From assembly GCF_046105845.1 (NCBI RefSeq), contig NZ_CP151004.1: a stretch of DNA of 64,000 bases; one strand, given 5' to 3'. The position numbers were made by a program, and so were the translations under genes. The notes under the pieces are model-generated. The model searched no databases. It had not been told where the DNA came from and was given only the letters and a program-made list of their open reading frames with translations. Shown piece by piece: positions 1,911 through 26,679 of the stretch (position 1 is the stretch's first letter; every line of letters begins with the position of its first letter). Source of the DNA: Escherichia coli (lineage in GTDB: Bacteria > Pseudomonadota > Gammaproteobacteria > Enterobacterales > Enterobacteriaceae).

Positions 1911-2513
1911 GTGTTAGCTTTTTGCCGCTCTTCGTTGAAGTCAAAAAAATATTTCATCATTTTACTGGCGCTCGCTGCAATTGCCGGACTGGGTACTCAT
2001 GCCGCCTGGAGTAGCAATGGTTTGCCACGTATCGACAATAAAACGCTGGCCAGACTGGCACAGCAGCATCCGGTTGTCGTTTTGTTTCGCCATGCTGAAC
2101 GTTGCGATCGTTCAACCAACCAATGCTTGTCAGATAAAACAGGTATTACGGTTAAAGGTACCCAGGATGCCCGTGAACTGGGCAACGCTTTTAGTGCTGA
2201 TATCCCTGATTTCGATCTTTATTCCAGTAATACCGTCCGGACCATTCAGTCGGCGACCTGGTTTTCAGCGGGTAAAAAGCTGACGGTAGATAAACGACTT
2301 CTTCAGTGCGGTAATGAGATTTATAGTGCAATTAAGGACTTACAAAGCAAAGCGCCTGATAAAAATATCGTTATTTTCACCCATAATCATTGCCTGACAT
2401 ATATTGCTAAAGATAAGCGTGATGCGACATTTAAACCTGATTATCTGGATGGTTTAGTCATGCATGTGGAAAAAGGCAAAGTTTATCTGGATGGGGAATT
2501 CGTTAACCACTAA
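1911..2513 (+). CDS. ais: Histidine-phosphatase-like protein Ais (LPS core heptose(II)-phosphate phosphatase)
   Basis: GTG start at 1911 preceded by GGAG; 200 aa beginning [23 protein letters not shown] histidine-phosphatase motif; divergent from arnB. Confidence 0.85.
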
Positions 2514-2551
2514 ATTTTCAATCTGACAGCCAGTAATGGCTGTCATCATTG

Positions 2552-2977
2552 TTACAGAAGACCTTTCAAACGTAACGTTTTTCGGGTGGCGACATTCAAA
2601 TCATAATGCACCAGATCTTCAGGTTTTACCCACGCGTAGTCCTGAAACTCTTCGTTTATTTTCACTTCTCGGTTGGCAGAAACGCAGTCAAAAATCAGGT
2701 AAATCATATAAATCTCTTCCTTGCGACCATCTGCATACGTCTTGGTGCGAATATCATCGCTGAAGGTCCACGGCGTGATTTCTGTCAAAAGCAGCTGTTC
2801 TCCCAGTTCTTCGCGAATTTCGCGGCGTAGTGCCTCTTCAATTCGTTCGCCAGGCTCCACGCCGCCACCCGAAAGCGCCCATTGACCGGGGAAAACGCCG
2901 CGATCGTCGGCCATTTTACACAGCAAATAAGCACCATCATTTTGAATCAAAGGGCATACAATAGTCCGTTGTCGCAC
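2552..2977 (-). CDS. nudI: Nudix hydrolase (nucleoside triphosphatase NudI)
   Basis: Nudix box [27 protein letters not shown] start at 2977 gives 141 aa (the track ORF extends further 5'). Confidence 0.85.
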
Positions 2978-3255
2978 GGGGATATTCCTTATAAATAAAA
3001 AGAAACCATGAGAATACGGTAACTCAGAAATATGTGAAAGTGACAGTAATCTCTTTTGCGATGATAACTGCACTTATTATTATTTTTGTGTGTATCGATA
3101 AAGTGTGTTTATTTTTTCGGCGTTTAATTATTTAAGAAGTATTTAGTTACAATAAGTGACTAGATCCCTTTTTTCGCTCATTGAATCCTCTGTGCCAGGC
3201 AGTACAATCCCGCAGCTTTGGGAATTTTGATTTATTGCTTGTGGGAGAGGGGAAA

Positions 3256-3798
3256 ATGAAAAAAATTGCGCTAGCAGGTCTGGCCGGAATGCTGTTGGTT
3301 TCTGCATCGGTCAATGCAATGAGCATCAGCGGCCAGGCGGGTAAAGAATACACCAATATTGGTGTCGGTTTTGGGACTGAATCGACGGGCCTGGCGTTAA
3401 GCGGTAACTGGACACATAACGACGACGACGGTGACGTCGCGGGCGTGGGGCTGGGGTTGAATCTGCCTCTCGGGCCGTTAATGGCGACCGTTGGCGGAAA
3501 AGGCGTTTACACCAACCCGAATTACGGCGATGAAGGTTATGCCGCAGCGGTAGGAGGTGGTTTGCAGTGGAAAATTGGCAACAGCTTCCATTTGTTTGGC
3601 GAGTATTACTACTCTCCGGATTCGCTCTCCAGCGGTATTAAAAGTTATGAGGAAGCGAATGCGGGCGCGCGTTACACCATTATGCGTCCAGTGAGTATTG
3701 AGGCGGGCTATCGCTACCTGAACCTTTCTGGTAAAGACGGTAACCGCGACAACGCCGTGGCTGACGGCCCGTATGTTGGGGTTAACGCCAGTTTCTGA
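3256..3798 (+). CDS. yfaZ: Small outer-membrane protein YfaZ
   Basis: ATG at 3256 gives 180 aa with signal peptide MKKIALAGLAGMLLVSASVNA and a glycine/aromatic-rich beta-barrel-like sequence. Confidence 0.8.
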   Translation: MKKIALAGLAGMLLVSASVNAMSISGQAGKEYTNIGVGFGTESTGLALSGNWTHNDDDGDVAGVGLGLNLPLGPLMATVGGKGVYTNPNYGDEGYAAAVGGGLQWKIGNSFHLFGEYYYSPDSLSSGIKSYEEANAGARYTIMRPVSIEAGYRYLNLSGKDGNRDNAVADGPYVGVNASF

Positions 3799-3897
3799 TC
3801 CCTTCCGGCGCGGCATTCTGTCGCGCCATTCAGTTTCTTACTACGCCTTATCTCCCTTTGCGTTATAGTGATTCGATAACAAAAGCAGGAGATAACC

Positions 3898-5100
3898 ATG
3901 TTAAAAGTGGAAATGCTATCCACCGGGGATGAAGTGTTACACGGGCAAATCGTTGACACTAACGCTGCCTGGCTGGCCGATTTTTTCTTTCATCAGGGGT
4001 TGCCATTATCTCGCCGCAATACGGTGGGAGATAACCTTGATGACTTAGTGACCATTCTTCGCGAACGGAGTCAGCACGCCGATGTGCTGATCGTTAACGG
4101 CGGGCTGGGGCCGACCAGTGATGATTTAAGCGCACTCGCCGCTGCAACAGCAAAAGGGGAAGGCCTGGTGCTGCATGAGGCCTGGCTCAAAGAGATGGAA
4201 CGCTATTTCCACGAACGTGGACGAGTAATGGCACCGAGCAACCGTAAACAAGCGGAGCTGCCTGCCAGTGCTGAATTTATCAATAACCCGGTAGGCACCG
4301 CCTGTGGTTTTGCCGTGCAGCTTAATCGTTGCCTGATGTTCTTTACCCCCGGCGTACCGTCAGAATTTAAGGTGATGGTCGAGCACGAAATCCTGCCGCG
4401 CCTGCGCGAGCGTTTTTCTTTACCGCAGCCGCCGGTTTGCCTGCGTTTGACTACCTTTGGTCGTTCGGAAAGCGATCTGGCACAAAGCCTGGACACTCTA
4501 CAATTGCCGCCGGGCGTAACAATGGGCTATCGCTCTTCTATGCCGATTATCGAACTGAAACTCACCGGACCGGCAAGCGAGAAACAGGCGATGGAAAAAT
4601 TGTGGCTGGACGTTAAACGTATTGCCGGACAGAGCGTGATTTTCGAAGGTACCGAAGGACTGCCCGCGCAGATCAGCCGCGAATTGCAAAACCGCCAGTT
4701 CAGCCTGACGTTGAGCGAGCAATTCACCGGTGGTTTATTGGCTTTGCAACTTTCTCGCGCAGGTGCTCCATTGCTGGCGTGTGAAGTGGTTCCTTCACAG
4801 GAAGAAACCCTGGCGCAAACGGCGCACTGGATTACAGAACGGCGGGCCAACCATTTTGCCGGGCTGGCACTGGCTGTTTCGGGTTTCGAGAACGAGCATC
4901 TCAACTTTGCGCTAGCCACGCCAGATGGCACTTTCGCTCTGCGTGTACGTTTCAGCACTACACGCTACAGCCTGGCTATCCGTCAGGAAGTGTGCGCAAT
5001 GATGGCACTGAATATGCTGCGCCGTTGGTTAAACGGTCAGGACATCGCCAGTGAGCATGGCTGGATTGAGGTTGTTGAGTCCATGACTTTATCTGTCTGA
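3898..5100 (+). CDS. yfaY: CinA-like protein (MoCF-binding domain N-terminus)
   Basis: 400-aa ORF; N-terminus LSTGDEVLHGQIVDTNAAWLA typical of CinA/MoeA-type domain. Confidence 0.85.
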   Translation: MLKVEMLSTGDEVLHGQIVDTNAAWLADFFFHQGLPLSRRNTVGDNLDDLVTILRERSQHADVLIVNGGLGPTSDDLSALAAATAKGEGLVLHEAWLKEMERYFHERGRVMAPSNRKQAELPASAEFINNPVGTACGFAVQLNRCLMFFTPGVPSEFKVMVEHEILPRLRERFSLPQPPVCLRLTTFGRSESDLAQSLDTLQLPPGVTMGYRSSMPIIELKLTGPASEKQAMEKLWLDVKRIAGQSVIFEGTEGLPAQISRELQNRQFSLTLSEQFTGGLLALQLSRAGAPLLACEVVPSQEETLAQTAHWITERRANHFAGLALAVSGFENEHLNFALATPDGTFALRVRFSTTRYSLAIRQEVCAMMALNMLRRWLNGQDIASEHGWIEVVESMTLSV

Positions 5101-8690: not shown

Positions 8691-9494
8691 ATGAACGCAT
8701 TATTAAGCAATCCCTTTAAAGAACGTTTACGCAAGGGCGAAGTGCAAATTGGTCTGTGGTTAAGCTCGACTACTTCTTATATGGCAGAAATTGCCGCCAC
8801 TTCCGGTTATGATTGGTTGCTGATTGACGGGGAGCACGCGCCAAACACCATTCAGGATCTTTATCACCAGCTACAGGCGGTAGCGCCCTATGCCAGCCAA
8901 CCCGTGATCCGTCCGGTGGAAGGTAGTAAACCGCTGATTAAACAAGTCCTGGATATTGGCGCGCAAACTCTACTGATCCCGATGGTCGATACTGCCGATC
9001 AGGCACGTCAGGTGGTGTCTGCCACGCGCTATCCTCCCTACGGTGAGCGTGGTGTCGGGGCCAGTGTGGCACGGGCTGCTCGCTGGGGACGCATTGAGAA
9101 TTACATGGCGCAAGTCAACGATTCGCTTTGTCTGTTGGTGCAGGTGGAAAGTAAAACAGCACTGGATAACCTGGACGAAATCCTCGACGTCGAAGGGATT
9201 GACGGCGTGTTTATTGGACCTGCGGATCTTTCTGCGTCGTTGGGCTACCCGGATAACGCCGGGCACCCGGAAGTGCAGCGAATTATTGAAACCAGTATTC
9301 GGCGGATCCGTGCTGCGGGTAAAGCGGCTGGTTTTCTGGCTGTGGCTCCTGATATGGCGCAGCAATGCCTGGCGTGGGGAGCGAACTTTGTCGCTGTTGG
9401 CGTTGACACGATGCTCTACAGCGATGCCCTGGATCAACGACTGGCGATGTTTAAATCAGGCAAAAATGGGCCACGCATAAAAGGTAGTTATTGA
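8691..9494 (+). CDS. rhmA: 2-keto-3-deoxy-L-rhamnonate aldolase (HpcH/HpaI family)
   Basis: ATG at 8691 gives 267 aa ([24 protein letters not shown]...). Confidence 0.9.
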
Positions 9495-9534
9495 TATCAA
9501 AGGCCCATGGGGATCGGCTGTGGGCCTGTGTTAA

Positions 9535-9708
9535 TTAGTGGTTATTCGCTGCCAGATCGGCTTCGCTTAGCTGGGTGGCAGCGAGCACCAGGTCACGATC
9601 AATGCCCTGTTCCAGCATGCGCAAGGCAATTTTAATGGCTTGTTCATGCATACCTTCCTGCCAGCCAATTTGGTGTCCTTCCTGCCGTAGCCGTTCAGCA
9701 ATAGTCAT
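9535..9708 (-). CDS. Possible internal in-frame small ORF (RpnS-like, 57 aa) in the 3' end of rpnB
   Basis: In-frame ATG at 9706-9708 preceded by AAGGAGAGATTA (strong SD, 6-nt spacer); encodes [19 protein letters not shown]...AANNH. Confidence 0.35.
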
Positions 9709-10437
9709 TAATCTCTCCTTTTGTAGTGGTGAACGTTCGGCAATCTCCTCAATAAAACGGGTGAAACGGGAGGTATCGCCGCATTGCAGCAGATAATTAA
9801 ACAGCGTTTGTAGCTGGCTGTCATTAGTGAAGCCTCTAACCAAAAGCGTGGTGATCCTGTCGACCATACCGATTAAATCGCGGTCGCGAATATGCTTTTG
9901 AATCAGTTCCAGCAGAGCTATACGCCGATGTTGCATGATCTCATCGTCAGGTACGATGGTGATATCCACCAACGGAAAAGCTTCGGTGTACAACTGCCGG
10001 GCAAGTTGCGGATCGTCAAACTCATCCAGCCAGTTGAGTGAGTACGGGTAGGGCGAGGTTTCGCCATGATAAAACAGTAACGGTACCACCAGCGGGACTC
10101 TGTCATAGCCTTTGTCCAGATGACGTTGCATGGCGGCAGTGGCATAGCGCATTAGCCGAAAGGCCATATTCTTTTCCGCTGAACTTTGATGTTCAATCAC
10201 GCAGTAGATATAGCCGTCACCGTCGCTGGTTTCCACCGACCACAAAACATCTGAGTAGTAAGCGCGTAAACTTTTTTCAATAAAACTGGTGGGTTCCAGG
10301 CGTAAGGTTTGCAGGTTACAAAGCTTGCGCAGTGGTTCTGGTAAATGTATTTCGAGAAAATCTCGCGCCGTATCGGGCGAGAACATAAAGGTTTTAAATA
10401 CCGCATCATGCGGGGAGGAGGTTGTTGATTCGGTCAT
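9535..10437 (-). CDS. rpnB: Rpn-family recombination-promoting nuclease (PD-(D/E)xK, transposase_31-like)
   Basis: 300-aa ORF; N-terminus HDAVFKTFM... and overall sequence characteristic of the YhgA/Rpn family (rpnB = yfaD). Confidence 0.8.
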
Positions 10438-10584
10438 GGTTGTCCGTCACCTGATATTTATGATGACGCGACATTACGGTTATCCCAGGCCTTTGACATC
10501 TGCCAGTTTCAGCCTTTGCGAGACGTTTTCAGAGGAATTTTCACTGCGTTGCAACGCATACACTGGGCACGGAATCGTGTACGC

Positions 10585-10616
10585 AAAAATGCCCGGTAAC
10601 AACATGCTTACCGGGC
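10585..10616 (-). terminator. Rho-independent terminator downstream of glpC
   Basis: 9-bp stem GCCCGGTAA/TTACCGGGC with 8-nt loop, followed on the minus strand by a T-run. Confidence 0.6.
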
Positions 10617-10629
10617 ATCAGAAAGGAGT

Positions 10630-14694
<4,065 letters not shown>

Positions 14695-14840
14695 TGTTAT
14701 CCCTCTGAAGTTCGTTTTTTACCATTTAGCCATAGTAAAAATATGAATTGTTTGATTTCGCGCATATTCGCTCATAATTCGAAAGTGAAACGTGATTCCA
14801 TGCGTCATTCTGAACATTTAACCCATCGTATTTAATAATG

Positions 14841-14856
14841 TGTGCGGTAATTCACA
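14841..14856. promoter_or_regulatory. CRP-binding site in the glpACB/glpTQ divergent control region
   Basis: TGTGC-GGTAAT-TCACA, a near-consensus TGTGA-N6-TCACA. Confidence 0.6.
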
Positions 14857-14966
14857 TTTAATTTATGAATGTTTTCTTAACATCGCGGCAACTCAAGAAA
14901 CGGCAGGTTCTCCCACTGAATCAGGCTGTTAATCATAAATAAGACCACGGGCCACGGAGGCTTTCA

Positions 14967-16325
14967 ATGTTGAGTATTTTTAAACCAGCGCCACACAAAG
15001 CGCGCTTACCTGCCGCGGAGATCGATCCGACTTATCGTCGATTGCGTTGGCAAATTTTCCTGGGGATATTCTTTGGTTATGCTGCTTACTATTTGGTTCG
15101 TAAGAACTTTGCCCTCGCTATGCCTTATCTGGTCGAGCAGGGCTTCTCACGCGGTGATTTAGGTTTTGCCCTTTCGGGGATCTCGATCGCTTATGGATTT
15201 TCGAAATTCATCATGGGCTCGGTGTCGGATCGCTCGAATCCGCGCGTTTTCCTGCCCGCAGGTTTGATTCTGGCGGCGGCAGTGATGTTGTTTATGGGCT
15301 TTGTGCCGTGGGCGACGTCGAGCATCGCGGTGATGTTTGTACTGTTGTTCCTCTGCGGTTGGTTCCAGGGGATGGGGTGGCCGCCGTGTGGTCGTACTAT
15401 GGTGCACTGGTGGTCGCAGAAAGAACGTGGCGGCATTGTGTCAGTGTGGAACTGTGCACACAACGTCGGTGGTGGTATTCCGCCGCTGCTGTTCCTGCTG
15501 GGGATGGCCTGGTTCAATGACTGGCACGCGGCGCTCTATATGCCCGCTTTCTGCGCCATTCTGGTGGCACTGTTCGCCTTTGCGATGATGCGCGATACCC
15601 CGCAATCTTGTGGCCTGCCGCCGATCGAAGAGTACAAAAATGATTATCCGGACGACTATAACGAAAAAGCGGAACAGGAGCTGACGGCGAAGCAAATCTT
15701 CATGCAGTACGTGCTGCCGAACAAATTGCTGTGGTACATCGCTATCGCCAACGTGTTCGTTTATCTGCTGCGTTACGGCATCCTCGACTGGTCACCGACT
15801 TATCTGAAAGAGGTGAAACACTTCGCGCTGGATAAATCCTCCTGGGCCTACTTCTTCTATGAGTATGCGGGCATTCCGGGCACCCTGCTGTGCGGCTGGA
15901 TGTCGGATAAAGTCTTCCGTGGCAACCGTGGGGCCACCGGCGTCTTCTTTATGACACTGGTGACCATCGCGACTATCGTTTACTGGATGAACCCGGCAGG
16001 TAACCCAACCGTAGATATGATTTGTATGATTGTTATCGGCTTCCTGATCTACGGCCCTGTGATGCTGATCGGTCTGCATGCGCTGGAACTGGCACCGAAA
16101 AAAGCGGCAGGTACGGCAGCGGGCTTTACCGGGCTGTTTGGTTACCTGGGCGGTTCGGTGGCGGCGAGCGCGATTGTTGGCTACACAGTGGACTTCTTCG
16201 GCTGGGATGGCGGCTTTATGGTAATGATTGGCGGCAGCATTCTGGCGGTTATCTTGTTGATTGTTGTGATGATTGGCGAAAAACGTCGCCATCAGGAATT
16301 ACTGCAAAAACGCAACGGAGGCTAA
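14967..16325 (+). CDS. glpT: Glycerol-3-phosphate:phosphate antiporter (MFS)
   Basis: 452 aa, 12-TM MFS protein; N-terminus [31 protein letters not shown]. Confidence 0.95.
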
Positions 16326-16329
16326 TGGC

Positions 16330-17406
16330 ATGAAATTGACGCTGAAAAACCTTAGCATGGCGATCATGATGAGTGGAATGATCATGGGAAGCAGTGCAAT
16401 GGCGGCGGACAGCAACGAAAAAATAGTCATCGCCCATCGCGGTGCCAGTGGATATTTGCCGGAGCATACGCTGCCAGCAAAAGCGATGGCGTATGCGCAG
16501 GGAGCGGATTATCTGGAACAAGATTTAGTGATGACGAAGGATGACCATCTGGTTGTTCTGCATGACCATTATCTCGATCGTGTTACTGATGTTGCCGATC
16601 GTTTCCCGGATCGGGCGCGCAAAGACGGTCGTTACTACGCGATAGATTTCACGCTCGATGAAATTAAGTCACTGAAATTTACCGAAGGTTTCGATATTGA
16701 AAATGGTAAGAAAGTACAGACTTATCCGGGGCGTTTCCCGATGGGTAAATCTGACTTCCGGGTACACACTTTCGAGGAAGAGATTGAATTTGTTCAGGGG
16801 TTAAATCACTCTACCGGGAAAAATATCGGTATCTATCCAGAAATTAAAGCGCCGTGGTTCCATCATCAGGAAGGGAAGGATATTGCGGCAAAAACGCTGG
16901 AAGTGCTGAAGAAATATGGTTACAGCGGTAAGGACGACAAAGTTTATTTGCAATGTTTTGATGCCGATGAACTGAAGCGTATTAAGAATGAGCTGGAACC
17001 TAAAATGGGCATGGACCTCAATCTGGTACAGCTGATTGCCTATACCGACTGGAACGAAACTCAGCAGAAACAGCCGGACGGAAGCTGGGTTAATTACAAC
17101 TACGACTGGATGTTTAAGCCGGGGGCCATGAAACAGGTGGCGGAATATGCTGATGGTATTGGTCCGGATTATCATATGTTGATTGAGGAGACATCGCAGC
17201 CAGGTAATATCAAACTCACTGGCATGGTGCAAGATGCTCAGCAGAACAAGCTGGTAGTGCATCCTTATACCGTGCGGTCAGATAAACTGCCTGAATACAC
17301 TACTGATGTGAATCAGTTATATGATGCTCTGTATAACAAAGCGGGTGTAAATGGGCTGTTTACTGATTTCCCTGATAAGGCAGTAAAATTCCTTAATAAA
17401 GAGTAA
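16330..17406 (+). CDS. glpQ: Periplasmic glycerophosphodiester phosphodiesterase
   Basis: ATG at 16330 gives 358 aa with signal peptide; GP-PDE motif HRGASGYLPEHT. Confidence 0.93.
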   Translation: MKLTLKNLSMAIMMSGMIMGSSAMAADSNEKIVIAHRGASGYLPEHTLPAKAMAYAQGADYLEQDLVMTKDDHLVVLHDHYLDRVTDVADRFPDRARKDGRYYAIDFTLDEIKSLKFTEGFDIENGKKVQTYPGRFPMGKSDFRVHTFEEEIEFVQGLNHSTGKNIGIYPEIKAPWFHHQEGKDIAAKTLEVLKKYGYSGKDDKVYLQCFDADELKRIKNELEPKMGMDLNLVQLIAYTDWNETQQKQPDGSWVNYNYDWMFKPGAMKQVAEYADGIGPDYHMLIEETSQPGNIKLTGMVQDAQQNKLVVHPYTVRSDKLPEYTTDVNQLYDALYNKAGVNGLFTDFPDKAVKFLNKE

Positions 17407-17626
17407 TGCTATTGCAGGATGGCGTTCATGCGCCATCCTCTGCTAAAGCGAAATAATGCTACTTCCGGTTGTTCTATTCATTAACCGGTGCATCCTGTTA
17501 AAAAAGATGCCAACATATTTGCATAAAACTCATTCGTTAAGAAAGCTAACACTGGGCATTGTTATTCCTTAAACAGTATGAATTGGGTTCAATAATAAAT
17601 TGTATTGCAGTTTATACTGTAAAGTA

Positions 17627-18697
17627 TTATTCGCATTTCGGGAAAGTAAAGAAAATATTAATGTATCTTATTAATTTATTATATTGTTCTTGAGTGAATG
17701 CTATTTGCACACCTTCAGGATAATATTCACCAGTAATAACCAGTTGTCCATTGCTGTGTTGTACCATTAAACCTTTTTTTTCCTTTGGATCTTCAAACTT
17801 AGAATTATCAAACGTGAAGATGTTATTTTCCTGTTTTGAGTAAGCAAAGAAATCTCGTGTATAGCTGAAACTATCATTTATTAATGGTGCTAACTTTTTG
17901 TCGGCGATATCGATAAGCTCACCACTTAATTTATTGATGTATTTCATTTGGTTCAATTTTTTCTGCGCTTGTACAATTTGCTTGTAGGTATTTTTAATTT
18001 CCTTAGAAGAATTCTTGAATTTATCATAGCGTTCCACGGAGGATGCGTATTTGTACCATTCTGTATTTTTCTCAGAATGTAGTAGCAGGTCTGTATATTT
18101 TTTTTGATCGCTGTAAAGTTGACTTTTAATACTTTCCTCACTGCTGGTTTTATAAGGTTTATCAGAGCTGTTTATTTTTGAAATGTCTTTTTCTGTCGGT
18201 GACTGGACCGTGTTGTGGATATTTTCTTTTATAACATGTTCATTGATGATGTTAATTGCAGTTTCATATTCATTTAAGTTTATTGTTCTTTGTGAAATAA
18301 ACCCTTCTTTGCTTTCGACACTCAAAATACCTTCGTTGTTTTCACCTCGGGTAAAGGTAAGGGTATAGGGTTCATAATCCGCTGCAAATTCATTTTTATA
18401 CGTTATGACATGTTCGACAAAATGTCTTATTGGTACGAAACCATAACTGTGAACGTCAATTTTTTGGGTCTTGATACTATCAATTGCATCTGAGGCTTTC
18501 GTGAAAAAAGCCAATAAATTAGCTATGCTGTCTGCTGAAGTTGATAACCCGTATCTACTTTGAGATATTTTTAGAAACTCATCGCAAAAAAACTCAAGTT
18601 TCGCGGTTTGTTGTGATTCTTTGTAAATTTCTGCTGGTTGCAATTTATTATTTTGTAAAATATTACAGCGAGATAAGTGAATAGATGTATTTGGCAT
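17627..18697 (-). CDS. Hypothetical protein, 356 aa, AT-rich, no recognisable domain
   Basis: Long intact ORF; first ATG at 18697 preceded by AAGGAATCATTT (SD); the track ORF begins at an upstream TTG. Base composition by eye is roughly 30-35% G+C against about 50% in flanking genes. No signal peptide, TM helix or catalytic motif recognised. Confidence 0.6.
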   Translation of the reverse strand: MPNTSIHLSRCNILQNNKLQPAEIYKESQQTAKLEFFCDEFLKISQSRYGLSTSADSIANLLAFFTKASDAIDSIKTQKIDVHSYGFVPIRHFVEHVITYKNEFAADYEPYTLTFTRGENNEGILSVESKEGFISQRTINLNEYETAINIINEHVIKENIHNTVQSPTEKDISKINSSDKPYKTSSEESIKSQLYSDQKKYTDLLLHSEKNTEWYKYASSVERYDKFKNSSKEIKNTYKQIVQAQKKLNQMKYINKLSGELIDIADKKLAPLINDSFSYTRDFFAYSKQENNIFTFDNSKFEDPKEKKGLMVQHSNGQLVITGEYYPEGVQIAFTQEQYNKLIRYINIFFTFPKCE

Positions 18698-19162
18698 AAA
18701 TGATTCCTTGTATTGTGAGTTAACAAGATACAATCTAATCTTTGCAAAATATATTCACTATCAAATTTAGCTCATTTTATTACGAAGACCTTTACGCATG
18801 GTAGAAAGTATCATTATTGTTAATAAATACGGTAATAAGTAACAAACAGATATTGATAACTTCCCTGAAAAGTTACTAGGTATCCCACTTGAAGATTGAG
18901 AATGGCTCCAGAGTAAACTGTGTACTGTTCGCCGGAGTGTCATTACTCTCAACGATCGGTTTTGACAGTGAGTCGGGCGCTTCATACCGGTTTCTACCTG
19001 GAGTCATTGTCACTTCTCCCAACTGGATAAATATATATCGCCAATTCACAAAGTGGGCCAAAATCAGGTGAAAACGAATTATTACGCCTGGTAAAGGCTA
19101 TAGTACAACTAAGTGTGGCGAATCAGGCAGTCTTGCATTTGTCATCAATCTCATGTCTTACA

Positions 19163-20041
19163 TCAAATTTTTCCACTCACCACGAGTTGTTCCGTACACG
19201 TTTGTAGTAAAAACAGTGGACTGCCTTCTACCGGCTTTTCTTTAGCCAGCAACGAAATCTGTCGATAGAAGGTTGGTTCGAGAGGAACGGAACACAATTC
19301 ATCTGCAATGGTTTTCAGCGTTAACTCTGGTAATAAGGCGATGCCTAATCCCTGTCGAATAAAACTGATCGCTGTATCCGGGTGATTAAATTCATATTTT
19401 ATCTGTGGGGTAATATTCTTTTCTTTAAATAGTGCCATAATGCTTAATTCATAGCGTCCTTTACTAATAATTAATGGTTCACCCATTAACTCTTCCACTG
19501 TAATAGTGCTGTTTTTTGCCAGAGCATGGTTGGGCGGTAACACTACGGTGAATTTATCCTGATAAATGGGCACGGAGTACATTCCGCTCACCGGAAAATG
19601 AACAAAACCGGCATCAATGGATTCATTCTGAAGGGAATCAATAATCGCTGTGCTATTTTCCTCAAAAGGAATAATTTTTATATTCGGATGATGAATTTCA
19701 AAGTAGCGAATCACAGCCGGTAAGATACAGGCGCAGACGCTGGGGAAACAACCAAGTCTCAGCGTTCTTTGAGGGTTCTGCTTTTCCTGCTCGGCTATCT
19801 CTTTTACTGCGTTCACTTCCCGATTAATGGCGCGCAGATGATGCATAATGCGGTGACCTGCAGAGGTCAGTTGTATAGCTTTACGGCGATCGCGTAACAG
19901 TATATTCACGCCAAGTTCTTGTTCGAGGGCAGCAATTGCCTGACTTACCGCCGACTGCGTCATGAACAATCGCTTGCTGGCTTCAGTAAAGCCACCGTAA
20001 TCCAGCACGGCGAGTAAAGAATTTATTTGGGTAAGAGTCAT
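19163..20041 (-). CDS. LysR-family transcriptional regulator
   Basis: 292 aa; N-terminal HTH LTQINSLLAVLDYGGFTEASKRLFMTQSAVSQAIAALEQELG; divergent from the adjacent MFS gene. Confidence 0.85.
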   Translation of the reverse strand: MTLTQINSLLAVLDYGGFTEASKRLFMTQSAVSQAIAALEQELGVNILLRDRRKAIQLTSAGHRIMHHLRAINREVNAVKEIAEQEKQNPQRTLRLGCFPSVCACILPAVIRYFEIHHPNIKIIPFEENSTAIIDSLQNESIDAGFVHFPVSGMYSVPIYQDKFTVVLPPNHALAKNSTITVEELMGEPLIISKGRYELSIMALFKEKNITPQIKYEFNHPDTAISFIRQGLGIALLPELTLKTIADELCSVPLEPTFYRQISLLAKEKPVEGSPLFLLQTCTEQLVVSGKI

Positions 20042-20192
20042 TAGAGTTTGCTAATCAATAATATTAAAACGATTAATTTCTCTAATAGCATGCCGCCATT
20101 TATACTTCTGTTCTGCAAAGTACATCACAATTTGACGCAACCGCAGTAACGGGAGTGTTGTCTGCGTGCGTCATCCTGACAGGCGGTAGGGT

Positions 20193-21383
20193 ATGAAAGA
20201 GAAGTTATGGACGAAGGATTTTTGGGCAATAACCATCATCAGCTTTATTATTTTCTTCGTCTTTTATGTTTTACTAACATTGTTGCCAATTTATATCTCT
20301 GACCGCTTGCATGCCTCTCCTGATAAAGCCGGTTTATTGGTGACTTTATTTTTAATTGCCGCCATTGTTATTCGCCCATTTGCCGGGCAATGGGTGGGTA
20401 AATACTCGAATAAAACTATTCTGGTGCTCTCTTCTCTGGCCTTTTTATTGGTCACAGCGTTGTATCCTTTTTGCCACTCAATTGAATCACTGCTTTTTAT
20501 TCGGGTGCTTCATGGTATTACCTTCGGGGTTATCACTACGGTAAAAGGAACGATTTCCGCGCGGCTGATCCCGGCCTCCCGACGTGGGGAGGGCATCAGT
20601 TTTTTCTCTCTGGCAATGGGGCTGGCAATGGTGGTCGGGCCGTGGATTGGCCTGAATATGGCGCGCTGGGAGGCCTTTAATATGGCTTTCTGGTTATGCA
20701 CCGGCGTGGCAGCGGTGGGGATTATTCTGTCGCTGATTATGACAGTGCCGCCGGTTATCAGCCATGCTGATGGTTCAACGCCGAAAATGGGCTTCGCCGC
20801 CATGTTCGATCGCGCGGCGTTGCCATTTGCGATGGTCACCTTTTTTATGACCTTTTCGTATGCCGGGGTTTCTGCTTTTCTGGCGCTTTATGCACGCGAA
20901 CTTAACCTGATGTCGGCAGCCAGTAATTTCCTGCTTTGCTACGCTATCTTCCTGATGATTTGCCGTACCTTTACCGGCAATGTCTGCGACAAAAAAGGAC
21001 CGAAATATGTGGTTTACCCTTGCCTTGTGTTCTTTACGGTAGGACTGGTGGTTCTCGGCTACACCCAGGGAAGCATAATGATGGTTGTTTCTGGCGCATT
21101 GATTGGTATCGGGTATGGTTCCGTGACGCCAGTTTTTCAGACGCAGATTATCAGTTCAGTGGAACCGCATAAAATCGGTGTCGCAAACTCCCTCTTCTTC
21201 AATGCGATGGATGCAGGCCTGGCGCTGGGAGCCTTTGTGATGGGGATGATGGTTGCACATACTGGCTACCGAATGATTTATCTGCTGGGTGCACTATTAG
21301 TGGTGGTGGCTGGTGGAGTCTATGCGCTGCAAATGAAGGGTAAAAGCGGTGTCGCGCTAGTAGTGGCAAAAGAAATTCATTAA
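20193..21383 (+). CDS. MFS transporter (probable LysR-controlled efflux/uptake pump)
   Basis: 396 aa with about 12 hydrophobic segments; divergent from the LysR gene. Confidence 0.8.
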   Translation: MKEKLWTKDFWAITIISFIIFFVFYVLLTLLPIYISDRLHASPDKAGLLVTLFLIAAIVIRPFAGQWVGKYSNKTILVLSSLAFLLVTALYPFCHSIESLLFIRVLHGITFGVITTVKGTISARLIPASRRGEGISFFSLAMGLAMVVGPWIGLNMARWEAFNMAFWLCTGVAAVGIILSLIMTVPPVISHADGSTPKMGFAAMFDRAALPFAMVTFFMTFSYAGVSAFLALYARELNLMSAASNFLLCYAIFLMICRTFTGNVCDKKGPKYVVYPCLVFFTVGLVVLGYTQGSIMMVVSGALIGIGYGSVTPVFQTQIISSVEPHKIGVANSLFFNAMDAGLALGAFVMGMMVAHTGYRMIYLLGALLVVVAGGVYALQMKGKSGVALVVAKEIH

Positions 21384-21463
21384 TACGACACGTTTCATTA
21401 AGATTTTTCGCAGGTAACCACCTATAGTCATTGTCGTTAATAAAAAATGACAGGCGATAGGGT

Positions 21464-22114
21464 ATGGCAGTTTCAGCAAAGCACGACGAATTTAATCACT
21501 GGTGGGCAACAGAGGGCGACTGGGTTGAAGAGCCTAACTATCGCCGTAATGGTATGAGCGGGGTGCAATGCGTCGAGCGCAACGGCAAAAAGCTATATGT
21601 AAAGCGCATGACGCATCATCTGTTTCATTCCGTACGTTATCCGTTCGGCCGACCAACGATTGTCCGTGAGGTTGCGGTAATTAAAGAACTGGAACGGGCC
21701 GGTGTCATCGTGCCGAAGATCGTTTTTGGTGAAGCAGTGAAAATTGAGGGGGAATGGCGCGCGTTGCTGGTGACTGAAGATATGGCGGGGTTCATCAGCA
21801 TTGCTGACTGGTATGCCCAGCATGCAGTAACGCCCTATTCTGACGAAGTACGGCAAGCCATGTTGAAAGCAGTGGCGCTGGCGTTTAAGAAAATGCATAG
21901 CGTTAATCGTCAGCATGGCTGTTGCTATGTTCGCCATATCTATGTGAAAACAGAAGGTAAGGCAGAAGCTGGTTTTCTTGATCTGGAGAAAAGTCGTCGC
22001 CGCTTGCGTCGCGATAAAGCGATTAATCATGACTTCCGCCAGCTGGAAAAATATCTGGAGCCGATCCCTAAAGCGGACTGGGAGCAGGTGAAAGCGTATT
22101 ACTACGCCATGTAA
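21464..22114 (+). CDS. inaA: Kdo/WaaP-like lipopolysaccharide kinase family protein InaA
   Basis: 216 aa matching InaA by sequence and position next to yfaE-nrdBA. Confidence 0.85.
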   Translation: MAVSAKHDEFNHWWATEGDWVEEPNYRRNGMSGVQCVERNGKKLYVKRMTHHLFHSVRYPFGRPTIVREVAVIKELERAGVIVPKIVFGEAVKIEGEWRALLVTEDMAGFISIADWYAQHAVTPYSDEVRQAMLKAVALAFKKMHSVNRQHGCCYVRHIYVKTEGKAEAGFLDLEKSRRRLRRDKAINHDFRQLEKYLEPIPKADWEQVKAYYYAM

Positions 22115-22167
22115 TCGTTGTAGGCCAGATAATACGCGTAAGCGTCGTATCTGGCGCTAGTACCCGA

Positions 22168-22422
22168 TCACAACTCGATTTCAATATCGCCTTTTGCCCG
22201 GCAACAACAGGGCAAAATTTCCCCCGGCTGAATAAAGGCTAACGGTTCGGCAATCCAGTCCACCTGGCCTGCAACAAGGCGCGTGCGACAGGAACCGCAG
22301 TAACCTTCGCGGCACTGGTACTCAACCGCCACATTGTGGGATTCCAGCGCCGCCAGAAGGGAAGGGTGTTCATCCTGGCACAGCAGTTGTGTGCCAGTGA
22401 TGCGCAGGGTAACGCGAGCCAT
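22168..22422 (-). CDS. yfaE: 2Fe-2S ferredoxin YfaE (NrdB diferric-tyrosyl cofactor maintenance)
   Basis: 84 aa; cysteine motif CREGYCGSCR; start overlaps nrdB stop (TGATG). Confidence 0.9.
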   Translation of the reverse strand: MARVTLRITGTQLLCQDEHPSLLAALESHNVAVEYQCREGYCGSCRTRLVAGQVDWIAEPLAFIQPGEILPCCCRAKGDIEIEL

Positions 22423-23552
22423 CAGAGCTGGAAGTTACTCAAATCGTCGGTGTCCACTTCCGAGTCAATCTGCCCGACCAGATAAGAACTGACTTCCACT
22501 TCCTGCGGAGCAACCTGCACGTTATCAGACACCAGCCAGGTATTGATCCACGGGATCGGGTTGGAGCGTGTCTGGAACGGCAGATCCAAACCGACTGCCT
22601 GCATACGGATATTGGTGATGTATTCAACGTACTGGCAGAGAATGTCTTTATTCAGACCAATCATCGAACCGTCACGGAACAGATAATCCGCCCAGTCTTT
22701 CTCTTGCTGTGCCGCCTGGACAAACAGGTCATAGCTCTCCTGCTTACATTCTTCGGCAATTTCCGCCATCTCCGGATCATCCGCACCGCTGCGCAGCAGA
22801 TTCAGCATATGCTGAGTACCGGTCAGGTGCAGGGCTTCGTCGCGGGCAATCAGGCGAATAATTTTGGCGTTACCTTCCATCAGTTCGCGTTCTGCAAAGG
22901 CAAAGGAACAAGCAAAGCTGACGTAGAAGCGGATCGCTTCCAGCGCGTTAACGCTCATCAGGCAGAGATACAGTTTTTTCTTCAGCTCGCGCAGGCTAAC
23001 GGTTACGGTTTTACCGTTAACGGTGTGGGTACCTTCGCCCAGCAGATGCCAGTAGCTGGTCATTTCGATCAGCTCATCGTAATAGCTGGAGATCCCTTCC
23101 GCACGTTTCTGGATCTGCTCGTTGGTGACGATATCATCAAACACAACGGACGGATCGTTAACGATATTACGAATGATATGGGTATAAGAACGAGAGTGAA
23201 TGGTTTCTGAGAACGCCCAGGTTTCGACCCAGGTTTCCAGTTCAGGGATCGAGATCAGCGGCAGCAGTGCCACGTTCGGGCTGCGACCCTGAATGGAGTC
23301 CAGCAACGTCTGATATTTCAGGTTGCTGATAAAGATGTGTTTTTCGTGTTCAGGCAGTGCCTGGTAATCGATACGGTCACGAGAAACGTCAACTTCTTCC
23401 GGACGCCAGAAGAAAGAGAGCTGCTTTTCGATCAGCTTTTCGAAGATGTCATATTTTTGCTGATCGTAGCGAGCCACGTTGACCGGCTGACCAAAGAACA
23501 TCGGTTCTTTCAGCTGATCATTTTTCGTCTGTGAAAAGGTGGTATATGCCAT
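22422..23552 (-). CDS. nrdB: Ribonucleoside-diphosphate reductase 1 beta subunit
   Basis: ATG at 23552 gives 376 aa ([22 protein letters not shown]...); the track ORF extends 5' into the REP region. Confidence 0.95.
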
Positions 23553-23575
23553 GAATGTGTCCTGTTGGGAGTTTA

Positions 23576-23690
23576 ATGCCGGATAAGGCATTTTACGCCG
23601 CATCCTGTGCCTGATGCGACGCTGGCGCGTCTTATCAGGCCTACAAATCCGAGCCGTAGGCCAGATAAGGCGTTCACGCCGCATCCGGCA
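23576..23690. repeat. REP/BIME cluster in the nrdA-nrdB intergenic region
   Basis: Inverted GCCGGATAAGGCxxxxACGCCGCATCCGGC-type units (REP consensus), at least two copies. Confidence 0.75.
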
Positions 23691-23698
23691 TCTCAAAA

Positions 23699-25984
23699 TC
23701 AGATCTTACATGCGCCGCTTTCGCAGCCATCGTCCTGGATTGACGGCACCAGATCGTCTTGTGCGTCTTCAGCACCGTCACGGGTGTTCTGATAATACAG
23801 CGTTTTAACCCCGAATTTGTAGGCGGTGAGCAGGTCTTTCAGCAGTTGCTGCATCGGCACTTTTCCTGACGGGAAGCGTGACGGATCGTAGTTGGTGTTA
23901 GCAGAGATCGACTGATCGATAAATTTCTGCATGATACCCACCAGTTGCAGATAGCCATCGTTACCCGGCATTTCCCACAGCAGTTCATAGGCGTCGTGCA
24001 GATGCTCGTAGTCCGGCACCACCTGGCGCAGAATACCGTCTTTCGACGCTTTGATGCTGACGTAACCACGCGGCGGTTCAATACCGTTAGTGGCGTTAGA
24101 GATCTGCGAAGAGGTCTCGGACGGCATCAGAGCAGAAAGCGTGGAGTTACGCAGGCCGTGCGTTTTGATTGACTCACGCAGTGCTTCCCAGTCGTAATGC
24201 AGCGGCTCATTAGCGATGGCATCCAGATCTTTCTTATAGGTATCGATCGGCAGGATCCCTTTCGCGTAAGTGGTTTCGTTAAACCACGGGCACGCGCCTT
24301 GCTCTTTCGCCAGCTCATTAGAGGCTTTCAGCAGGTAATACTGAATCGCTTCGAAGGTTTTATGCGTCAGGTTGTTGGCGCTGCCGTCGGAGTAGCGTTT
24401 ACCGTGCTTCGCCAGGTAGTAAGCGAAGTTGATCACTCCAATACCCAGCGTACGACGACCCATCGCTCCACGTTTGGCGGCCGGGATCGGGTAATCCTGA
24501 TAGTCCAGCAGCGCGTCGAGTGCGCGTACCGCCAGAATCGCCAGCTCTTCCAGTTCATCAAGGCTGTTAATTGCGCCCAGGTTGAAAGCAGACAACGTAC
24601 ACAGCGCGATTTCACCGTTCTCGTCGTTGACATCATTCAGCGGTTTGGTCGGCAGGGCGATTTCCAGGCACAGGTTAGACTGGCGCACTGGCGCGATGGC
24701 CGGATCAAACGGGCTATGGGTATTGCAGTGGTCAACGTTCTGAATATAGATACGACCGGTAGACGCACGTTCCTGCATCATCAGCGAGAACAGCTCAACG
24801 GCTTTCACACGCTGCTTGCGGATGCTGTCGTCTTTCTCATATTTGGTGTACAGGCGTTCAAACTCTTCCTGATCGGCGAAGAACGCGTCGTACAGCCCCG
24901 GTACGTCGGACGGGCTGAACAGGGTGATATCTTCACCTTTCAGCAGACGGGTATACATCAGTTTGTTGATTTGTACCCCGTAGTCCATATGACGCACGCG
25001 GTTGCCTTCCACCCCACGGTTGTTTTTCAACACCAGCAGGCTTTCCACTTCCAGATGCCACATCGGGTAGAACAGCGTAGCCGCACCGCCACGCACACCG
25101 CCCTGAGAGCAGGATTTCACCGCTGTCTGGAAATGCTTATAGAACGGAATACAACCGGTATGGAACGCTTCGCCACCGCGAATCGGGCTACCCAGCGCAC
25201 GAATACGCCCGGCATTGATGCCGATCCCGGCACGCTGGGAAACGTATTTAACAATCGCGCTGGAGGTGGCGTTAATGGAATCCAGGCTGTCACCGCACTC
25301 GATCAGTACGCAGGAGCTGAACTGACGAGTCGGGGTACGCACGCCGGACATGATTGGCGTCGGCAGCGAAATTTTAAATGTGGAAACCGCGTCGTAAAAA
25401 CGCTTCACGTATTGCAGGCGCGTTTCACGCGGGTAGTTCGAGAACAGGCACGCGGCAACCAGAATATAAAGGAACTGGGCGCTTTCGTAGATTTCGCCGG
25501 TCACACGGTTCTGCACCAGATATTTGCCTTCCAGCTGCTTAACGGCAGCATAAGAGAAGGTCATATCACGGTCGTGATCGATAAACGTGTCCATCTGCTT
25601 GAACTCTTCTTCCGTGTAGTCTTCCAGCAGATGATTATCGTATTTGCCCATCTCGACCATTTTCACCACGTGGTCGTACAGCGCAGGCGGCTCAAACTGG
25701 CCGTAGGCTTTTTTACGCAGGTGGAAGATTGCCAGGCGCGCGGCGAGATACTGATAATCCGGCGCATCACGGGAGATCAGGTCTGCGGCAGCCTTGATAA
25801 TGGTTTCGTGGATGTCAGAGGTCTTGATACCGTCATAAAACTGAATGTGGGAGCGCAGTTCGACCTGGGAAATCGAAACGTTATGCAGTCCTTCTGCCGC
25901 CCAATCCAGAACGCGATGGATTTTGTCGAGATTGATGCGCTCTGTGCTACCGTCGCGCTTTGTCACCAGCAGATTCTGATTCAT
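23699..25984 (-). CDS. nrdA: Ribonucleoside-diphosphate reductase 1 alpha subunit
   Basis: 761 aa; C-terminal redox tail CESGACKI. Confidence 0.96.
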
Positions 25985-26061
25985 GTATGTCGTACCTGTT
26001 TTTGGAATTCTTTCCGCAATAGTTTCGTGCAGACTACCTGTAGTACGGGAAGCTGCTTAGA

Positions 26062-26108
26062 ACACTATATATAGGGGGTATGTTTGGGATTCACTGCAAG
26101 ATAGTGTG
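26062..26108 (-). promoter_or_regulatory. Two NrdR boxes upstream of nrdA
   Basis: Minus strand reads CCCCCTATATATAGTGT (26062-26078) and CACACTATCTTGCAGTG (26092-26108), matching the NrdR box pair as I recall it. Confidence 0.6.
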
Positions 26109-26137
26109 AAAATGGCCCTCTTGCAAGTGCATAACTT

Positions 26138-26146
26138 TGTGGATAA
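26138..26146 (-). promoter_or_regulatory. DnaA box upstream of nrdA
   Basis: TGTGGATAA on the plus strand is a perfect TTATCCACA on the minus strand. Confidence 0.55.
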
Positions 26147-26679
26147 CTCAGGAAGGAAAAAGTGGCTTTCGCGCACCTTAGGTCAGACAAGGTGTCCGGG
26201 AAAGTCAATGGGAAGAGAAAAATTTGTTAAAAATAACTGTTCGGCGATTTCTTGAACGGAAGAATAGGTTAGATAAATTGATATAGATGGTTTATTAATC
26301 TTTTGGCTAATGATTGCAAAAATTGATCTAAGCACGAATCATCGCATAATCTGATGTATCAGTTCTGGTCAATATATAAGCGAATGTAAGCGATTGTTGA
26401 TATCGAAATGGTTGTTTTCTCTTCGGTTATTGTTAAATGCGAAGCCATTTTGTTAATTTACCTTATATTATAAGAAAATTATTCATTACTTTAATTCAGT
26501 TTAAATATAACTAATATCCCTTAAGGTGATTAACTTGAATTATGACGCACTGATATTATTCATGAAATAATAACAAAATAGCCATTGCACGGGGTTGAAC
26601 AATTTACAAAAGAAAAATAACCCATATCGTATAATGCGATTAAATATGCCGTCTTATAGAAAATGATGGTCAGATTAAT

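Follow-up and report, generated by a model that had tools for sequence, protein, structure and literature searches.

The 64,000-nucleotide (nt) stretch of Escherichia coli DNA analysed here (contig NZ_CP151004.1; hereafter the window, to whose full length all coordinates refer) carries three genes between glpQ and inaA, in an interval spanning positions 17407-21463. These are an AT-rich orphan gene, identified by gene order as Z3496 (Sakai ECs3123), a gene for a LysR-type regulator, Z3495, and, divergent from the latter, a gene for a major facilitator superfamily (MFS) transporter, Z3494 (Table 1). An earlier note on this DNA had described the interval as one insert of ~4 kb. We find instead that it combines two distinct polymorphisms of E. 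coli, both catalogued before: an AT-rich segment containing the orphan gene, which we call module A, and the LysR-MFS pair, which we call module B. Taken as a whole, the evidence presented below makes it probable that module B is old at this site and has mostly been lost, that module A is a single AT-rich insertion, and that the orphan Z3496 is a genuine gene under weak constraint. The locus is the O-island 97 (OI-97) region of O157:H7, an identity that the earlier note had not recognised.

Layout and composition of the glpQ-inaA interval

The sharp fall in G+C reported in the earlier note over the 356-codon open reading frame (ORF) was borne out by our analysis. The 1-kb segment 17501-18500 has a G+C content of 0.322, the minimum of the entire window (mean 0.507, standard deviation 0.047), and values fall to 0.29-0.33 across ~17400-18900. 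G+C at third codon positions (GC3) is 0.30 in the orphan ORF, 0.42 in the LysR gene and 0.54 in the MFS gene, compared with 0.50-0.65 in the surrounding core genes. Overall G+C is 0.43 for LysR and 0.48 for MFS, far nearer to the local background (glpQ itself has 0.455), and the low G+C is confined to the orphan-gene segment. This segment starts immediately after a hairpin that, in strains without it, lies between the convergent glpQ and LysR genes.

In line with the earlier note, ARAGORN together with ORF and family scans revealed no flanking integrase, insertion sequence (IS) or transfer RNA (tRNA) gene: there is no tRNA gene in 12000-27000, no integrase or IS in or beside the interval within the window, and no annotated integrase in any of 12 related loci. 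Direct repeats, which the note had suggested looking for at the ends of the interval, were not found around it, the repeat scan yielding short, chance-level matches only. An Rfam scan of 17000-21800 returned as its sole match a chance hit to a eukaryotic long non-coding RNA, below threshold.

Table 1. Features of the glpQ-inaA interval and its borders, in window coordinates.
Feature	Position	Strand	Basis
glpQ, left flank of interval	ends 17406		ORF map
Hairpin after glpQ (AGGATGGCG-ttcatg-CGCCATCCT)	17416-17439	not assigned	sequence reading; junctions compared to those of strains lacking module A and of other Escherichia species
Module A, AT-rich insertion, 1,715 bp, G+C 0.34	17440-19154 (boundaries +/-4 bp)	not assigned	BLAST breakpoints
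Orphan gene (Z3496), 356 codons from ATG	17627-18697	-	ORF map
Non-coding leader of module A, 457 bp, LysR stop to orphan gene start	18698-19154	-	no conserved ORF
LysR-type regulator gene, Z3495	19163-20041	-	domains; primer-arm mapping
Left copy of 8-bp direct repeat TTTATCTG	19398-19405		junction comparison; imperfect over about 13 bp
LysR/MFS divergent control region, 151 bp	20042-20192		alignment across genera
MFS transporter gene, Z3494	20193-21383	+	domain; primer-arm mapping
Right copy of TTTATCTG	21277-21284		junction comparison
inaA, right flank of interval	starts 21464		ORF map

Two separate modules vary among E. coli genomes

We used BLAST to compare window positions 16273-22200 with six structural types, and carried out a census of 5,426 complete E. 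coli genomes. Only 710 of these genomes possess both modules, scored as coverage of at least 80% of a 5-kb query (16900-21900). The interval is therefore strain-variable, as the earlier note had proposed, and the alignments to K-12 and the wider E. coli panel, which supplied the counts and breakpoints given here, refute the idea that it is core sequence in all E. coli. Module A was detected in 1,052 genomes, in each case on the chromosome and at a single locus. For module B, three alternative states together account for 5,400 of the 5,426 genomes, namely an intact LysR-MFS segment (1,232), a K-12-type fused remnant left by a deletion (3,111) and a B2-type sequence (1,057). By subtraction, the combined states amount to ~13% for A with B, 10% for B only, 6% for A with the deletion, 51% for the deletion only and 19.5% for the B2 type.

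Individual strains exemplify each arrangement. The O157:H7 strain MB41-1 has all three genes; ECSD228 has the order glpQ-LysR-MFS-inaA and lacks ~17440-19154; K-12 W3110 lacks both the AT-rich segment and the DNA between the two TTTATCTG repeats; and UID2309220004, 2020CK-00188 and STEC306 combine the AT-rich segment with the K-12-type deletion. In B2 strains, of which F11 is an example, both segments are missing and glpQ is followed instead by 120 bp of unrelated DNA. This B2-specific DNA of ~120 bp (positions 2008-2130 of the locus extracted from F11) has no similarity to the LysR-MFS pair, to module A or to the glpQ-inaA spacers fetched from the other species, and the B2 allele holds no remnant of module B. 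All four combinations of presence and absence exist, and the interval is the product of two independent insertions or deletions (indels), each with its own history, rather than the one insert of the earlier note.

It is in the light of these combinations that we consider it extremely improbable that the whole ~4 kb, with its three genes, was acquired horizontally as a single island. Such an island would account for the absence of the interval from K-12 and B2 strains, and would fit the somewhat low G+C of the LysR gene. Modules A and B also co-occur above chance, with 710 of the 1,052 carriers of A possessing B compared to ~520 of ~4,370 non-carriers, and the published work on this locus likewise calls Z3495 'laterally acquired' (PMC10819331). 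However, the breakpoints of the two modules are clean and separate, and the B-only and A-plus-deletion states refute a single unit. K-12 moreover keeps both ends of the LysR-MFS segment, which marks a deletion scar rather than an empty site, other genera have the pair at this very position, and the break in composition falls inside the interval and not at its ends. As for the co-occurrence, a largely clonal species should show it for sites that lie 250 bp apart. The earlier note had offered horizontal acquisition or differential loss as explanations for the interval; both hold, divided between its two halves, with the LysR-MFS pair lost in K-12 and the AT-rich segment inserted.

The locus is O-island 97 of O157:H7

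O-island 97 of strain EDL933 consists of z3494 (MFS) and z3495 (LysR) (Wang et al. 2024, PMC10819331). The lambda-Red homology arms published in that study match the window at 19123-19162 and 20040-20079 (z3495 / OI-97 deletion), at 20153-20192 (z3494) and at 21277-21316, with 0-2 mismatches, so that the identity of the locus with OI-97 is direct. The window strain is not O157. Its proteins share 98-99% identity with their O157 counterparts, and the 5-kb region as a whole is 97.2% identical to that of O157. O157:H7 carries the region and K-12 lacks it at the corresponding chromosomal position, as is characteristic of an O-island.

In enterohaemorrhagic E. coli (EHEC), Z3495 binds the rcsF promoter and, through rcsF, raises LEE (locus of enterocyte effacement) expression; loss of z3495 by deletion reduces ler/LEE expression, adherence and the colonisation of mice, while deletion of z3494 has no phenotype (PMC10819331). 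Half of the locus is therefore already characterised by experiment, and the locus is ordinary, already known accessory genome. As such, it is of little consequence for new biology and constitutes a textbook case of accessory variation at a core-gene junction. Where our analysis departs from the published one is in the origin of the pair: lateral acquisition was the earlier interpretation (PMC10819331), whereas synteny and the K-12 scar described below indicate loss in K-12. The view of Z3495 as a laterally acquired EHEC regulator should accordingly be revised to that of an ancestral gene lost by most E. coli.

The third gene does not feature in this literature. The neighbouring designations are established, with Z3497 corresponding to glpQ (PMC4041753) and ECs3125 to glpT (PMC2241611), but 'z3496' has 0 occurrences in the text and supplements of PMC10819331, and a literature search for Z3496, ECs3121-3123 and OI-98 found no paper. 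Z3496 has never been studied. About a fifth of complete E. coli genomes possess it, all sampled O157:H7 among them, and its position is directly downstream of Z3495. Deletions of z3495 could affect Z3496.

Module B: a LysR regulator and divergent MFS transporter

The LysR gene is complete in the window (292 codons), and its product has an HTH_1 domain (PF00126, residues 3-63, E 1.1e-17) followed by a LysR_substrate domain (PF03466, residues 88-267, E 1.4e-36). The transporter matches MFS_1 (PF07690, residues 14-346, E 1.4e-45) and is of the DHA1-like / sugar-efflux-like type; its best matches in NCBIfam (PRK05122, PRK12382 and CntE) all fall under the cut-off. Except for the yfaH fragment model NF007272, no curated NCBIfam equivalog reaches cut-off for either protein. 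We then aligned the divergent control region between E. coli, Escherichia sp., Salmonella arizonae, Citrobacter youngae and Pluralibacter. Over the six genomes of five genera, a block of ~35 bp, ATTAATAATATTAAAACGATTAATTTCTCTAATAG, containing two ATTAAT hexamers 12 nt apart, is largely invariant. This block and the divergent layout fit the presumed operator and promoters of a LysR-type transcriptional regulator (LTTR). The module resembles generic cassettes of a LysR gene with a divergent MFS gene in its domains, in having the putative target 151 bp away and in its AT-rich, dyad-like putative operator conserved across genera, but differs in that neither protein reaches a curated equivalog cut-off.

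Two further observations concern the sequence of this module. A 19-nt direct repeat, TGACAGGCG(G/A)TAGGGTATG, occurs at 20177-20195 and 21448-21466 (18 of 19 positions identical), each copy spanning the ribosome-binding site and ATG, of the MFS gene in the first case and of inaA in the second; recombination between the copies would cut out the MFS gene precisely. In addition, about 99 genomes carry a second LysR allele, exemplified by O145:H28 RM13514 (positions 2011-3097 of its extracted locus), with ~77% DNA and 84% protein identity to the window allele. It is as distant as the Salmonella gene, although the adjacent MFS gene and inaA are 93% and 99% identical; the 3' end and terminator of glpQ differ in these strains as well. 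This looks like an allelic replacement from a relative.

Module B is probably ancestral and was lost in K-12-type strains

The K-12-type deletion removed 1,879 bp between the two 8-bp TTTATCTG repeats. As a result, K-12 keeps the last ~80 codons of the LysR gene, known as yfaH, fused at TTTATCTG to the last ~35 codons of the MFS gene. The statement in the earlier note that K-12 holds only a yfaH fragment here was correct: in W3110 we find the C-terminal LysR pseudogene and the 35-codon MFS tail, the NCBIfam yfaH model NF007272 matches residues 226-292 of the LysR protein, and window positions 19151-19409 align to the yfaH region of K-12 by BLAST. The K-12 pseudogene thus equals the final ~80 codons of the window gene, but is 8.5% diverged from it (22 differences in 259 nt), as expected of an old pseudogene, whereas the window gene is intact.

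We also conducted a cross-genus survey, in which one genome per species was scanned with GlpQ and then with tblastn. A LysR-MFS pair directly follows glpQ in Escherichia sp. E1V33, E. whittamii, Salmonella enterica subsp. arizonae, five genomes of the Citrobacter freundii group and one Pluralibacter, and its sequence identities drop in parallel with those of the flanking GlpQ and NrdB. Since K-12 retains both ends of the segment at a microhomology junction, since the pair is syntenic in other genera, and since the putative operator block shows little change between genera, module B appears to be ancestral and to have been lost, and it was probably present in the common ancestor of Escherichia, Salmonella and Citrobacter.

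Module A is a probable insertion downstream of the LysR gene

The breakpoints of module A were set by BLAST against ECSD228, K-12, Escherichia sp. E1V33 and E. whittamii. At the empty site, the E. coli sequence (...GCGCCATCCT / GTCTCACATCAAATTT...) corresponds to the one found in both E1V33 and E. whittamii (...ACGCCATCCT / GTCTTACTTCAAATTT...), the junction in each being CATCCT/GTCT. The insertion point lies 8 bp past the LysR stop codon, with the hairpin on its other side. Because two other Escherichia species show the identical empty junction, module A is best viewed as an insertion.

Its distribution is narrow. Module A occurs only in records labelled E. coli, among which we include Escherichia TW10509, and it was found at the same locus in TW10509 and in one metagenome-derived contig; none of the 80 glpQ loci that we fetched from representatives of other species contains it. 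Neither DNA nor protein searches of phage and plasmid collections, nor a search of IMG/VR viral contigs, gave a match; the only plasmid record to appear was NZ_CP141089.1 in PLSDB, a 4.94-Mb entry that is evidently a mislabelled chromosome. Neither a target-site duplication nor terminal inverted repeats emerged from the junction comparison and a repeat scan. Judged by the classical features of genomic islands, module A shows a deviant composition (G+C 0.34 versus 0.51, GC3 0.30) and has neither a recombinase gene, a tRNA or transfer-messenger RNA site, nor flanking repeats or a duplication.

The 457-bp leader has no promoter or terminator consensus and no Rfam family that we could find. A 72-codon ORF within it (18767-18985) was rejected as coding, as every change between alleles is non-synonymous and a stop interrupts it in one of them. 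What looked like a further copy of the glpQ stop and terminator at 17454-17471, which could have hinted at a donor glpQ locus, was not significant by shuffling (p about 0.09).

We weighed these data against the possibility that module A was already present in the E. coli ancestor, in which case strains without it would have lost it and the entire interval would reflect differential loss. The alleles of module A are indeed old, with a synonymous divergence (dS) of 0.05-0.14, rising to 0.30 centrally; the module is found in Escherichia TW10509; and it occurs together with both intact and deleted forms of module B. However, the E. coli empty site is identical, base for base, to that of E1V33 and E. 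whittamii, and the ancestral scenario is weakened because restoring that site would require precise excision without repeats to guide it. Furthermore, no partial remnants of module A were seen in strains without it. We therefore regard an ancestral module A as quite unlikely.

Z3496 is probably a real orphan gene under weak constraint

The orphan protein has 356 amino acids (41 kDa, isoelectric point 6.5) and is rich in K, S, I, E and N. Sequence analysis identified no signal peptide, transmembrane segment or other hydrophobic segment, and the protein is predicted to have N- and C-terminal alpha/beta parts separated by a long helical or disordered centre. The ATG is preceded, 7 nt upstream, by an AAGGA Shine-Dalgarno sequence.

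Relatives could be found only at close range. Sequence profiles gave no match in Pfam, NCBIfam, PADLOC, PHROGs or PDB, and PADLOC-DB returned 0 families at E <= 1. A word-indexed search of 5.8 billion clusters found 23 proteins, 82-99% identical over the aligned part, and all those with a named source are called E. coli. Exhaustive HMMER searches of 1.84 billion representatives recovered only the same protein or its fragments, besides a weak cadherin-repeat match (P0035, E 1.5e-4, residues 100-146), which we regard as a spurious resemblance of motif. An AlphaFold2 model built from the shallow alignment has a mean confidence (predicted local distance difference test, pLDDT) of 42, and Foldseek comparison of this low-confidence model with the PDB gave nothing at E < 0.1 or with a template-modelling (TM) score > 0.2. 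An internal duplication between two beta-plus-helix segments was also considered and is unsupported (E 9.9).

We then examined how the ORF has fared among alleles. Seven of eight alleles, with up to 7.8% divergence in the ORF, keep the 356 codons, one of these stopping one codon early. In simulations, random substitution left the frame open 25%, 13% and 1.4% of the time at 25, 35 and 83 changes, respectively. The uncompensated indels of module A all fall outside the ORF. The allele of O157:H7, O55:H7 and KV7 contains a pair of -1 and +1 nt changes 34 nt apart, at 18071-18105 (codons 198-210), such that 11-12 codons are read in another frame (IQTCYYILI versus YTDLLLHSE) before the original frame is restored. 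Several fully open alleles are labelled 'frameshifted' by the Prokaryotic Genome Annotation Pipeline (PGAP), labels that probably come from comparison with the O157 form. Pairwise ratios of non-synonymous to synonymous divergence (dN/dS) for the ORF range from 0.33 to 0.73.

The gene is not intact everywhere. IS1 interrupts it in ~13 of 60 evenly sampled carriers, about a fifth, at a site near window position 17930 (positions 2539-3299 and 3888-4645 of the extracted loci L005 and L088), several of these strains having ST410-like names, and TW10509 carries a true frameshift. In GDSC2227PM, an IS1 copy has the final 67 codons of the orphan gene on one side and the final ~170 of the MFS gene on the other, everything between them having been deleted.

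It is conceivable, then, that the 356-codon ORF is non-functional, either decaying or never having been more than an open frame in foreign AT-rich DNA. The lack of any homologue, domain or literature, the pLDDT of 42, dN/dS values of 0.7-0.9 in parts of the ORF, the IS1 insertions and the TW10509 frameshift would all be in keeping with this. However, an open frame of 356 codons is very unlikely to arise by chance in DNA of 32% G+C, and this one has survived 83 substitutions, for which the simulated chance is 1.4%; indels avoid it, and the one frameshift is compensated 34 nt later; and overall dN/dS is below 1 and the Shine-Dalgarno sequence is good. A non-functional frame thus seems to us rather unlikely. 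Retention of the frame, exclusion of indels, the compensated frameshift, dN/dS below 1 and the Shine-Dalgarno sequence indicate that Z3496 is a real gene, albeit one on which constraint, as judged from these alleles, appears weak.

Codons 151-210 (~18068-18247), in the predicted disordered centre, differ by ~20% at the nucleotide level between allele classes. Here dS is 0.30 and dN 0.22, compared with a dS of 0.05-0.17 in the rest of the gene; because both measures are raised, this stretch is better explained as an old mosaic than by positive selection alone.

This variable centre bears on a further proposal, in which the product of Z3496 would serve in specialised interactions, as a substrate or effector of type III secretion or as a single-gene, abortive-infection-like defence against phage. 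The gene is rich in A+T, is restricted to one lineage and evolves fast, its centre being hypervariable; the first 22 residues of its product lack acidic residues and are rich in S, T, N, Q, I and L; and it adjoins a regulator that affects LEE expression (PMC10819331), all of which would suit an effector-like or defence-like role. Yet no effector or defence family was matched in Pfam, NCBIfam, PDB, PADLOC or PHROGs, the homologues being unnamed Escherichia proteins; the gene is also present in many extraintestinal pathogenic E. coli (ExPEC) and commensal strains without the LEE, and is often disrupted by IS1; and the raised dS of its centre reflects a mosaic of old alleles and not positive selection alone. 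We accordingly give this specialised role a low probability.

A model for the history of the locus

Thus, it seems reasonable to suggest the following scenario. Z3495 would control the divergent Z3494 through the conserved predicted operator in the 151-bp region, answering some ligand. Most E. coli would have lost module B, K-12 types through the 1,879-bp deletion between 8-bp repeats that left yfaH. Module A, in turn, would have been inserted once, in some ancestor belonging to the E. coli lineage. Its DNA would have come from an AT-rich donor not yet sampled and been joined in by illegitimate (end-joining-like) recombination, and it would then have spread by descent and homologous recombination while decaying in some lineages through IS1 insertion and frameshift.

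Z3496 itself would encode a soluble, non-enzymatic-looking protein. AT-rich xenogeneic orphan genes of enterobacterial genomes form a class that is bound and silenced by H-NS. Z3496 resembles this class as a single lineage-restricted gene with G+C 17 points under the background, no homologues, weak constraint and IS hits, but module A differs from most such islands in having no mobility gene, tRNA or border repeat. Module A is likely to be H-NS-bound, and an H-NS-silenced accessory gene is our best guess for Z3496. Read-through into Z3496 from the LysR promoter would be possible, because the insertion parted the LysR gene from its hairpin and the 457-bp leader has no terminator consensus. We think it improbable that Z3496 is a functional, E. 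coli-restricted orphan, without detectable relative in ~15 billion predicted proteins, that is co-transcribed with the virulence regulator gene Z3495, whose downstream hairpin the insertion took away, and forms part of its regulon output. If this were true, Z3496 could be, for instance, a previously undescribed factor that interacts with the host or with phage, its hypervariable central linker being kept as old allelic diversity.

Several points count against this scenario. For module B, the presence of LysR-MFS pairs at the same site in several genera could stem partly from transfer by homologous recombination rather than from pure vertical descent, and one E. coli LysR allele is just 77% identical to the other at the DNA level. 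For module A, searches of phages, plasmids and viral contigs found no donor, and the mechanism of insertion is deduced from the lack of repeats alone. Its alleles are deeply diverged, dS reaching 0.14 over the whole length and 0.30 within codons 151-210; given this divergence and the presence of the module in TW10509, the insertion must be old, and its having happened once is a presumption. For Z3496, IS1 disrupts about a fifth of the sampled copies, dN/dS is high at 0.3-0.7, the structure prediction is poor (pLDDT 42), and no expression data were found in the literature search.

The glpQ/yfaE junction in other genera and other low-G+C stretches

In most other genera, glpQ directly adjoins yfaE. 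The gene inaA is patchily distributed, being found in Escherichia, the C. amalonaticus group and Intestinirhabdus, and E. albertii has neither the LysR-MFS pair nor inaA. Because the gene content beside glpQ varies in this way across genera, the glpQ/yfaE junction can be considered a site of recurrent gain and loss. We also noted 0.5-2.7 kb of extra DNA between glpQ and yfaE in Klebsiella michiganensis (9054-11804 of the extracted locus), Pluralibacter gergoviae (9048-9976) and one further fetched locus, and the junction appears to be a general insertion hot spot in Enterobacteriaceae. Two records from the survey, 'Chryseobacterium sp. 18061' and 'Pseudomonas sp. UBA4617', contain enterobacterial glpQ-yfaE-nrdB loci (GlpQ 81-84% and NrdB 94-95% identical to E. 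coli), and are probably mislabelled or contaminated assemblies.

Finally, the window contains two other stretches of low G+C, at 25985-26679 and 57267-58004 (1-kb minima 0.376 and 0.379), both intergenic. One is bounded by nrdA and the large ORF that follows, the other by an 890-aa sensor-type ORF, which we take from its sequence to be rcsD, and a porin gene, which we take to be ompC. Both seem to resemble ordinary AT-rich regulatory regions.

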